From contig CAVQMM010000001.1 of NCBI GenBank assembly GCA_963713615.1, forward strand, positions 736,001-800,000: a stretch of 64,000 nt of DNA, given 5' to 3'. Shown here piece after piece: positions 52,822 to 53,742 of the stretch. Below the pieces are notes generated by a model that worked only from the letters and a program-made list of their open reading frames with translations, had not been told where the DNA came from and ran no database searches. Made by a program: the position numbers and the translations under genes. This DNA comes from an uncultured Chlamydiae bacterium. GTDB lineage: Bacteria; Chlamydiota; Chlamydiia; Chlamydiales; JAJFMA01. The stretch's first letter is position 1, and every line of letters starts with the position of its first letter.

Positions 52822-53229
52822 GTTTGTGTAGCCCTTTTAACGCAAAGGCGCAAAGAAGAAGAGCTCACACAGGTGGACAAAAGGACCAAAGTGACATAAA
52901 AGACATAAAGAGGTAATTGCAGAAGTATTTGGGCTCTCATGGATCGATTCTTAGGAAAAAAGATTACCTTTTTTTGCGAGAAGGCGATTCTGGAAAGCTC
53001 AAATGGCATGGCACTATCTAGTCTGGAGAGACAGGCTTTTATCCCTTTCCAGGCCCGAAGGGTCGATATTGCAACAGGCCATGGCATCGCCATGGTATAT
53101 GCCAGGAAGGGATTTCGCAGTCTGAAGGACTGCTACAAGACGCCAGTTTACAAACACCATTTATGCATGCGCTTTATGGCAGCCCTACAGGCTGCTAAAA
53201 CCGTTTTGGCATATACCATGGCGATGCCA

Positions 53230-53538
53230 CATAGGCCTCAACCTAACAGGTCTTTTGAGCTTATATCTCAATGACTTAGGACTTCACAATCGTATCTCGG
53301 CGCGCAGCGCTTTGGAGTGCGGTCGCTTGCGACCGCTTTTCGTTCCTTGGGACGGCAATGCTAAACGGCATTGTATGGATTCGTCGAAGGCTGCATGTAC
53401 TAACTATTTTACCCTTAGGGAATTATAGTGATGCCGTTGCACACGACCGTCGCAAGGAACCCAAAGCGGTCGCAAGCGACCGCACTCCAAAGCGCTGCGC
53501 GCCGAGATACGATTGTTAGGCTTAGGTTGAGGCCTATG
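53230..53538. mobile_element. 309-bp MITE with CATAGGCCTCAACCTAA TIRs and 11-bp target duplication (IS4-family-like)
   Basis: TGGCGATGCCA at 53219-53229 and 53539-53549; 17-bp perfect TIRs. Confidence 0.88.
53287..53516. repeat. Innermost REP doublet (TTGGAGTGCGGTCGCTTGCGACCGCTTT)
   Basis: Over 50 bp of perfect inverted arms, each with an internal hairpin GCGGTCGC-TT-GCGACCGC. Confidence 0.92.
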
Positions 53539-53742
53539 TGGCGATGCCATGGCCTGTTGCAATATCGACCCTTCGGGCCTGGGAAGGGAATGACTCTCTC
53601 TTCACCGGCATCCGATTTTCAGGAAATTGACTTCGGAAAATCGGACTTCTGCAATTACCTCTAAAGGACTTGTAGAATGTGCTCCTAAGTCCTTTATGTC
53701 TTTTTCGTCACTTTGGTCCTTTAGCCCATCAGTTAAATGCTG

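Follow-up and report, generated by a model that had tools for sequence, protein, structure and literature searches.

By which events does a palindrome nested five layers deep, with no transposase gene inside it, come to lie between two genes? The stack occupies positions 52869-53733 of the window, i.e. of the whole 64,000-nucleotide stretch of DNA that was analysed. The window corresponds to C1:736001-800000 of the chlamydial source genome (G000; 3.97 Mb, 3 contigs, 99% complete). A sequence-only reading had described an alternation of DDE-type MITEs with REP-type doublets, set between convergent genes. All five layers were found within the window, both 17-bp TIR pairs and both target duplications are as it described them, and the alternation is supported. 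The neighbouring genes, at 51547-52821 (+ strand) and 53743-56388 (- strand), do converge on the stack.

Layer 1 is an AAAGGAC-iteron hairpin of the target family of the layer-2 MITE. The hairpin had been recognised, but its inverted arms (52869-52910 and 53692-53733; 42 nt, 86%) start about 11 nt further out than the 52880 first given. The outer part of the left arm (52869-52905) is followed by the left copy of a 4-bp target duplication, TAAA (52906-52909), and then by layer 2, a MITE of predicted IS1182 type on the + strand (52910-53661), the TIRs of which (52910-52926, 53645-53661) are identical at 17/17 positions. Positions 53662-53733 comprise the second TAAA (53662-53665), the remaining layer-1 left arm, the loop and the right arm. 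Within layer 2 lies layer 3, the hairpin doublet B (53042-53589; 228 bp when empty), with inverted arms at 53042-53092/53539-53589 (51 nt, 98%) and inner inverted arms at 53082-53104/53207-53229 (23 nt, 100%). Shell and doublet B form the layer-2 mobile unit, about 432 bp without layer 4. The centre of the hairpin-B palindrome (53219-53229) is the left copy of an 11-bp target duplication, repeated at 53539-53549. Between the two copies sits layer 4, a 309-bp MITE of the IS231 subgroup (IS4 family) on the + strand (53230-53538), again with 17/17 identical TIRs (53230-53246, 53522-53538). It carries layer 5, the REP doublet A (53287-53516; inverted arms 53286-53371/53431-53516, 86 nt, 90%), as fixed cargo. 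As predicted, deletion of layer 2 plus one duplication restores a 109-nt hairpin in layer 1, and deletion of layer 4 plus one duplication restores a 228-nt hairpin in layer 3. The sole internal ORF of at least 100 aa (52939-53274) had no Pfam match, in agreement with the claim that a transposase gene is missing inside.

Relatives of the layers occur elsewhere in the window. An isolated half arm of hairpin B lies at 41065-41101 (+ strand). The fragment at 43925-43980 had been read as a preserved layer 4/5 junction. It does contain a layer-5 arm, but this is joined to a sibling TIR and not to layer 4's own end. The feature (43925-43985, - strand) consists of a single REP-A arm plus a decayed sibling IS4-type TIR, TATACGCATCGACCTAA, truncated and fused to another repeat family. 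Its junction class has 21 matches, the fragment among them. It is an older TIR-REP fusion and not the layer 4/5 junction itself.

Further repeats and genes were noticed in the window. The arms of the palindromic repeats at 6926-7237 and 26098-26371 also flank two GxxExxY (PF13366) genes at C1:1921790 and C1:1855174, and 19126-19413 looks by eye like the second of these two families. More hairpin families are found at 14199-14361, 29259-29391, 10936-11021, 43741-43884, 45465-45491 and 49513-49611; two of these six also occur behind layer-2-type TIRs elsewhere. Tandem paralogues at 44030-49452 have weak OmpP1/FadL-like Pfam matches below cut-off. A 2160-aa ORF at 29465-35947 contains 108-bp repeats. 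An ORF with 48-bp repeats (41248-43563) and a glutamine-rich ORF (50685-51515) had no Pfam match.

Mobile units and their target sites

Each predicted empty junction was searched throughout G000, with three probes each for the empty layer-2 and layer-4 shells. This genome-wide comparison of empty, free and composite copies, proposed by the sequence-only reading, gave a divided answer. Layer 1 without layer 2 is represented by 11 empty junctions and the layer-3 arm without layer 4 by 77, all without a gap, whereas the three probes each returned 0 matches for layer 2 without layer 3 and for layer 4 without layer 5. Therefore the mobile units are hybrids, L2[L3] and L4[L5], and because these hybrids are fixed, two insertion events explain the stack. 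Empty sites document only these two: the landing of layer 2 in layer 1 and that of layer 4 in layer 3. The five-step history that had seemed readable is not supported: layers 2+3 and 4+5 are fixed units, and layer 4 may have arrived either before or after layer 2 landed here.

L2[L3] is present in G000 as 92 elements with both ends, 50 of them dispersed with layer 4, 19 dispersed without it and 23 in four tandem arrays. The 309-bp L4[L5] has 68 near-full copies, 66 of which are at least 90% identical; 24 copies are identical and 20 more have one shared substitution. The same shell haplotype, defined by variable alignment columns, occurs either empty or holding layer 4 in several orientations or variants, and one layer-2 element holds layer 4 in both arms. 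A matching duplication of at least 3 bp is kept by 47 of the 92 layer-2 elements. The mismatched flanks at half of the layer-2 copies suggest heavy rearrangement, and recombination has reworked many copies. Repeat-related sequence totals about 110 kb or 2.8% of the genome.

The arrays (C1:476.5-478.9k, 1173.3-1175.5k, 2273.5-2277.8k and 2600.8-2603.4k) consist of 5-9 L2[L3] units, in three of them with a period of about 473 bp and the layer-1 loop as spacer. Two insertions into one hairpin and then unequal crossing-over are the probable cause. Sequencing runs X1 and X3 contain the array junction as well. At C1:1137410-1138825 a layer-2 element encloses about 1 kb which, from its motif, we take to resemble a fragment of a group II intron.

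MITEs had been proposed to target REP hairpins, and a check for insertion bias towards palindromes bears this out for layer 4: 173 of its 181 ends in G000 adjoin the hairpin-B palindrome, and variant targets are mostly duplicated at both sides. Intact hairpin-B palindromes remain in 171 copies, 111 of them outside arrays. The target sites of layer 2 have the consensus GWC-N-WWWW-N-GWC and lie in layer-1-type iteron hairpins; GGAC/GTCC is found 4-11 nt outside 161 of 196 layer-2 ends, compared with a background of 2.7%. An ATGGAC variant of the iteron hairpin flanks two four-helix-bundle genes (TIGR02436/TIGR04258; C1:1850789-1851364 and 3217619-3218185), each with inverted ATGGAC iterons on both sides, and gene-less ATGGAC-iteron arms are common layer-2 targets. 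For the AAAGGAC variant, that of layer 1, no corresponding gene was found in G000.

Three full insertion sequences use the same hairpins. One IS66 (C1:433454 and 17 other sites) has 17 of its 18 copies in the doublet-A hairpin, in both arms and both orientations, and its entry points in layer 5 lie after 53333 or 53476; another IS66 family, alike in its ends, is scattered and untargeted. An IS1634 has 15/15 ends at a single site of arm A, and 9/9 copies of an IS110 share a single site in arm B. Stacks that have gained IS66 as their sixth layer span 3055 bp, and several keep the outer duplication. A sibling IS4-type MITE of about 280 bp (e.g. C1:2840976-2841259 and 1158721-1159000) has doublet A as its cargo and an A arm as its target, so that it lands in the repeat family that it carries.

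Origin of cargo and shells

Candidate parents had been expected among Y1/RAYT and DDE transposase genes. Y1/RAYT genes flanked by both hairpin families were identified in G000, but DDE parents were not. The layer-5 arms match 3+3 REPs that flank a single-copy RAYT gene (C1:3256585-3257115), which passes the RAYT cut-off of 80 with 83.9 bits against NF047646. The layer-3 arms match an array that begins just downstream of a single-copy IS200-like Y1 gene (C1:3243391-3243843), with an IS200-like score of 57.6 (cut-off 55) and a RAYT score of 22.4 (cut-off 80). B arms border the Y1 gene on one side in G000 and on both sides in the relative G023. The layer-3 system is closer to the TIRYT type. In the layer-3 and layer-5 alignments no conserved arm column contains the GTAG tetranucleotide. 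A third IS200-like Y1 gene (C1:3872945-3873400) is flanked by its own hairpin family, which is also seen inside layer-2 and other shells.

A census of the doublets supports the proposal that REPs travel inside MITEs. Among 149 A doublets, IS4-type TIRs bracket 74, layer-2-type TIRs 7 and mixed TIRs 3; a further 28 are flanked by a TIR on a single side, and 37, free and dispersed, have none within 90 bp. The median pairwise difference is 0 for TIR-adjacent A arms versus 0.375 for free arms. As for B arms, 232 of 293 have a layer-2 TIR no more than 170 bp away. The remaining 61 include 13 in the home array, 9 at IS110 junctions and 2 that make up one free doublet; by eye, most of the others retain the layer-2 internal flank. 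Outside its home array doublet B thus exists almost only as MITE cargo. The census suggests that many doublet copies were made by MITE carriage and not by RAYT duplication. Layer-2-type TIRs also wrap doublet A and other hairpin families and make up minimal elements of 66 and 84 bp (C1:1790184-1790503, 2647468-2647774, 3788858-3789149, 1494968-1495033 and 3510752-3510835).

The guesses of IS4 and IS1182 as parent families are consistent with full-length elements in relatives. The ends of layer 4 fit the IS231-subgroup signature CAT(7)AA(2)TAA, and its 11-bp duplication falls within the subgroup's 10-12 bp (PMC2266710, Table 1; like the other publications discussed here it was accessible in part, and comparisons refer to that part). 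An 11-bp duplication and a palindromic target are likewise shared with the subgroup. A full-length IS4 element of 1746 bp in a relative (G149:C22) has TIRs identical to layer 4 at 14/17 positions; its transposase scores 184 bits against NF033592 (cut-off 115) and has the YREK motif as in the IS4 family. Distinct from the subgroup, layer 4 is without coding capacity and holds a REP doublet, and its parent was not found in G000. According to PMC2266710 the IS231 subgroup occurs almost only in Firmicutes. The putative assignment of layer 2 to the IS1182 type is drawn from TIR likeness: small IS1182-like full elements (G228, metagenomes) match its TIRs at 13-14/17 positions, their nearest plasmid records are named IS1182/ISUnCu17, and small ISUnCu17-like IS1182 elements resemble layer 2 in that their TIRs start with GAG and read TTGCA at positions 8-12, and in that about 4 bp are duplicated. 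Layer 2 differs in being non-autonomous. The candidate IS1182-type parent scores 109 against NF033551, under the cut-off of 270.

Several searches of G000 for the parents were negative. PF13751 and PF05598 gave 0 matches. PF01609 gave 31, and none of 12 representative sites inspected had matching TIRs; by sequence we take these elements to resemble ISAs1, IS1634 and IS701 types, of which IS1634 was assigned by family scan. Tblastn with two IS4 proteins reached a best E of 1.0 and a 120-sequence IS4 profile 0.25, a 9-sequence IS1182-like profile returned nothing at E<10, and a scan for TIR pairs found nested ISs only and no parent. The absent parent, despite 24 identical layer-4 copies, is the main unexplained point of the two-MITE model.

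The composite was not found in 40 relatives, three same-genus genomes included, and 4 of the 40 have short matches to the hairpin arms. For an orthologous empty site, homologues of the upstream gene were present in 2 of 4 relatives, but with other downstream neighbours. Of 301 genomes from the phylum, 15 contain the layer-2 TIR pattern (at most one mismatch) and 25 the layer-4 TIR pattern, many of them as a single match. The exact layer-2 TIR pattern has at least 132 matches (at least 112 genome loci and at least 20 viral), 32 with short flanks only, and an autonomous full-length element with this TIR was not among the 132 matches listed, including the 32 with short flanks. The 20 viral loci among the matches listed look like chance coding matches. 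Among the matches listed, 42 of 112 GTDB loci, several from the same genomes, have a partner TIR within 1 kb; 28 of these 42 show a 3-6 bp duplication, and in 28 of the 42 the interior folds with z <= -3 against base shuffles. Calditrichaeota, Armatimonadota, Lentisphaeria and Syntrophales are represented among the paired loci, and in a Planctomycetales copy (L210) layer-2-type TIRs wrap a B-like doublet. An 806-bp element in another chlamydial genome (L116, CAWBNS010000012.1) shares the outer TIR and contains hairpins nested in several layers.

In G023 a whole Y1 gene (L080:461-1397 = G023:C1:106760-107696) stands between 232-bp inverted repeats that are 97% identical. In each repeat an IS231-type TIR is set between a B-like half arm on the outside and a B-like arm on the inside; by eye there is a further TIR-like outer layer, with the Y1 gene at the centre of the nest. 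Because the flanks are mirror images and not a direct duplication, this may be a recombination product and not a transposed unit.

Assembly of the stack and rival explanations

We consider it probable that the stack was built by two gene-less MITEs with fixed doublet cargo, likely inserted by DDE transposases in trans. The observations underneath are the anatomy, the empty sites, the genome-wide target fidelity and the match of the doublets to repeats at Y1 genes. The IS1182-type MITE with doublet B would have inserted into the iteron hairpin with a 4-bp duplication, and the IS231/IS4-type MITE with REP doublet A into the doublet-B palindrome with an 11-bp duplication. Each hybrid may go back to a single ancient event, either the landing of a doublet between IS ends or the closing of IS ends round a doublet, and would then have amplified as an ordinary MITE. 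Layer 2 would have spread first and layer 4 only recently, in a burst that used layer-3 arms already in place; the parent ISs may since have been lost or left unassembled. Recombination between copies or arms could later have shuffled flanks, flipped interiors and built the tandem arrays. Each element would land in a dispensable intergenic hairpin, and since its cargo is the landing site for the next element, stacks would build up. REP hairpins likely multiply by hitch-hiking rather than through their own transposase.

How much did whole composites contribute? Layer 4 is found 29 times in the right arm and 10 times in the left (p=0.003), and three composites (C1:309695, 656695 and 3645703) share their flanks over about 45 bp on the left and 120-160 bp on the right and differ by internal inversions. 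The latter were therefore copied within a larger unit, and taken with the arm bias this means that some stacks were copied whole and that independent insertion was not the sole route. Shell haplotypes are mosaic, moreover, and 25 of 50 non-array composites are without a matching duplication. Spread of the entire 752-bp composite, with inverted-arm recombination and gene conversion instead of repeated layer-4 insertion producing the arm and orientation states, is nevertheless unlikely. Layer 4 is about 15-fold less divergent than its host shells (0.45%, n=64, vs 6.9% for non-array shells, n=52), it resides in shells up to about 19% apart with variant targets duplicated on both sides, and the 111 palindromes outside arrays are still empty. 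This route can add to the two-MITE explanation, not replace it. A history of five separate arrivals, each REP doublet being put by RAYT into an empty resident MITE, would draw on the 37 free A doublets and on the 66- and 84-bp elements. We rate it as very improbable, given that no empty layer-2 or layer-4 shell was found, that doublet position and spacer are constant across tens of near-identical copies and that away from the home array free B doublets are seldom seen. It is improbable, too, that Y1/RAYT enzymes were the real movers and the TIR flanks passive passengers of REP doublets. G000 does contain Y1 genes, no DDE parent was found in it, and in 28 of the 149 A doublets a TIR relic persists on just one side; but the elements end exactly at the TIRs, have DDE-type 4-bp and 11-bp duplications and match full-length DDE ISs of relatives in their TIRs. 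Y1 enzymes are not known to make a DDE-type target duplication.

The proposed long hairpin agrees with the computed fold: as RNA the 865-nt region folds with -523 kcal/mol (z = -35.6 vs 20 shuffles). Such a fold between convergent genes, together with two terminator-like sites, one per strand, could indicate a host-selected structured RNA or bidirectional terminator. The fold is so stable because the layers are nested, however, and nesting alone suffices. Shuffles already give 1.0 +/- 0.8 terminator-like sites, a promoter scan of the stack region was negative, Rfam gave nothing at gathering score and a single chance-level match (E 0.3), and the composite was not found in the three same-genus genomes. 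A selected RNA or terminator is thus quite improbable. That collapsed repeats produced the stack as an assembly artefact is hardly credible. Admittedly, no public contig spans the whole locus, its outer junctions are unbridged, and sequencing runs contain at most a fraction of 0.33 of the locus words. Against this, both duplications match exactly, and identical junctions are seen again at tens of loci whose flanks differ. DNA runs from other studies provide contigs that bridge the layer-2/3 junctions (X1 52910-53078; X2 53539-53637); the layer-4/5 junction is covered by 61+29 letters, slightly too few to count as a bridge. Short-read contigs also show IS66 ends branching at 53333 and 53476.

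Relation to known systems and implications

The two-MITE model has known parts. ISPsy8, ISPa11, ISPpu9/10, ISRm19 and ISRm22 insert specifically into REP hairpins (Tobes & Pareja 2006, PMC1525189), and one of them, ISRm22, is placed in a subgroup of IS4 whose target arms are conserved (PMC2266710). Here, however, the targeting elements include non-autonomous MITEs that have the next REP family as cargo, and near-total REP fidelity is also seen in IS66 and IS1634, families unnamed in the accessible part of PMC1525189. QMITE2 of Coxiella burnetii is a MITE with a REP inside that is targeted by the IS110-family IS1111 (PMC5896051); the likeness is a REP-bearing MITE whose REP is an IS110-family target. 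As described in the part of that work accessible, QMITE2 involves one MITE and one IS, whereas in G000 the alternation involves two MITE families and two Y1-associated doublet families, stacks are five to six layers deep and cognate Y1 genes are present. With REPIN-RAYT systems and TIRYT/TIRtrons the doublets share their inverted arrangement and arms that also flank a single-copy Y1 gene; in contrast to these, the arms are without GTAG and the wrappers are identified as IS-derived. REP dimers in longer palindromic wrappers have been reported, with no empty wrapper found as far as the accessible text goes (Di Nocera et al. 2013, PMC3733652). REPINs are regarded as slow, RAYT-duplicated and distinct from fast, short-lived MITEs (Bertels & Rainey, 10.1101/2021.07.10.451892), whereas in G000 DDE-type TIRs enclose about half of the A doublets and most B arms, and the carried copies are near-identical. 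A literature search, with most subscription journals outside its coverage, returned no description of the layer-2 TIR or of a REP-MITE-REP-MITE chain. Its parts are familiar; what is unusual is how clearly carrying and targeting form a chain throughout the genome, and how complete the record of it is.

REPIN duplication rates and population sizes have been modelled as slow and RAYT-driven (10.1101/2021.07.10.451892, in the part accessible). The present genome has an internal control in one REP family that is both free and diverse and MITE-borne and near-identical. Therefore, hitch-hiking can supply about half or more of the copies of a REP family. Five elements of different IS families, IS66 and IS1634 members among them, each highly faithful to one short hairpin, are candidates for the study of target choice. 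Tentatively, capture by DDE mini-transposons might even be a main route of REP/REPIN expansion. Such a reading derives from doublet B having got beyond its home array nearly always as cargo of the IS1182 MITE, from half of the A doublets stemming from one IS4-MITE burst, from the same MITE end wrapping different doublets in several phyla, and from the whole Y1 gene with REP arms between IS231-type ends in G023. If it is right, capture could also move the supposedly non-jumping Y1/RAYT genes, and the hairpins with their IS66, IS110, IS1634, IS4 and IS1182 specialists may form a chain of landing sites, with each cargo giving the next element a safe place to insert.
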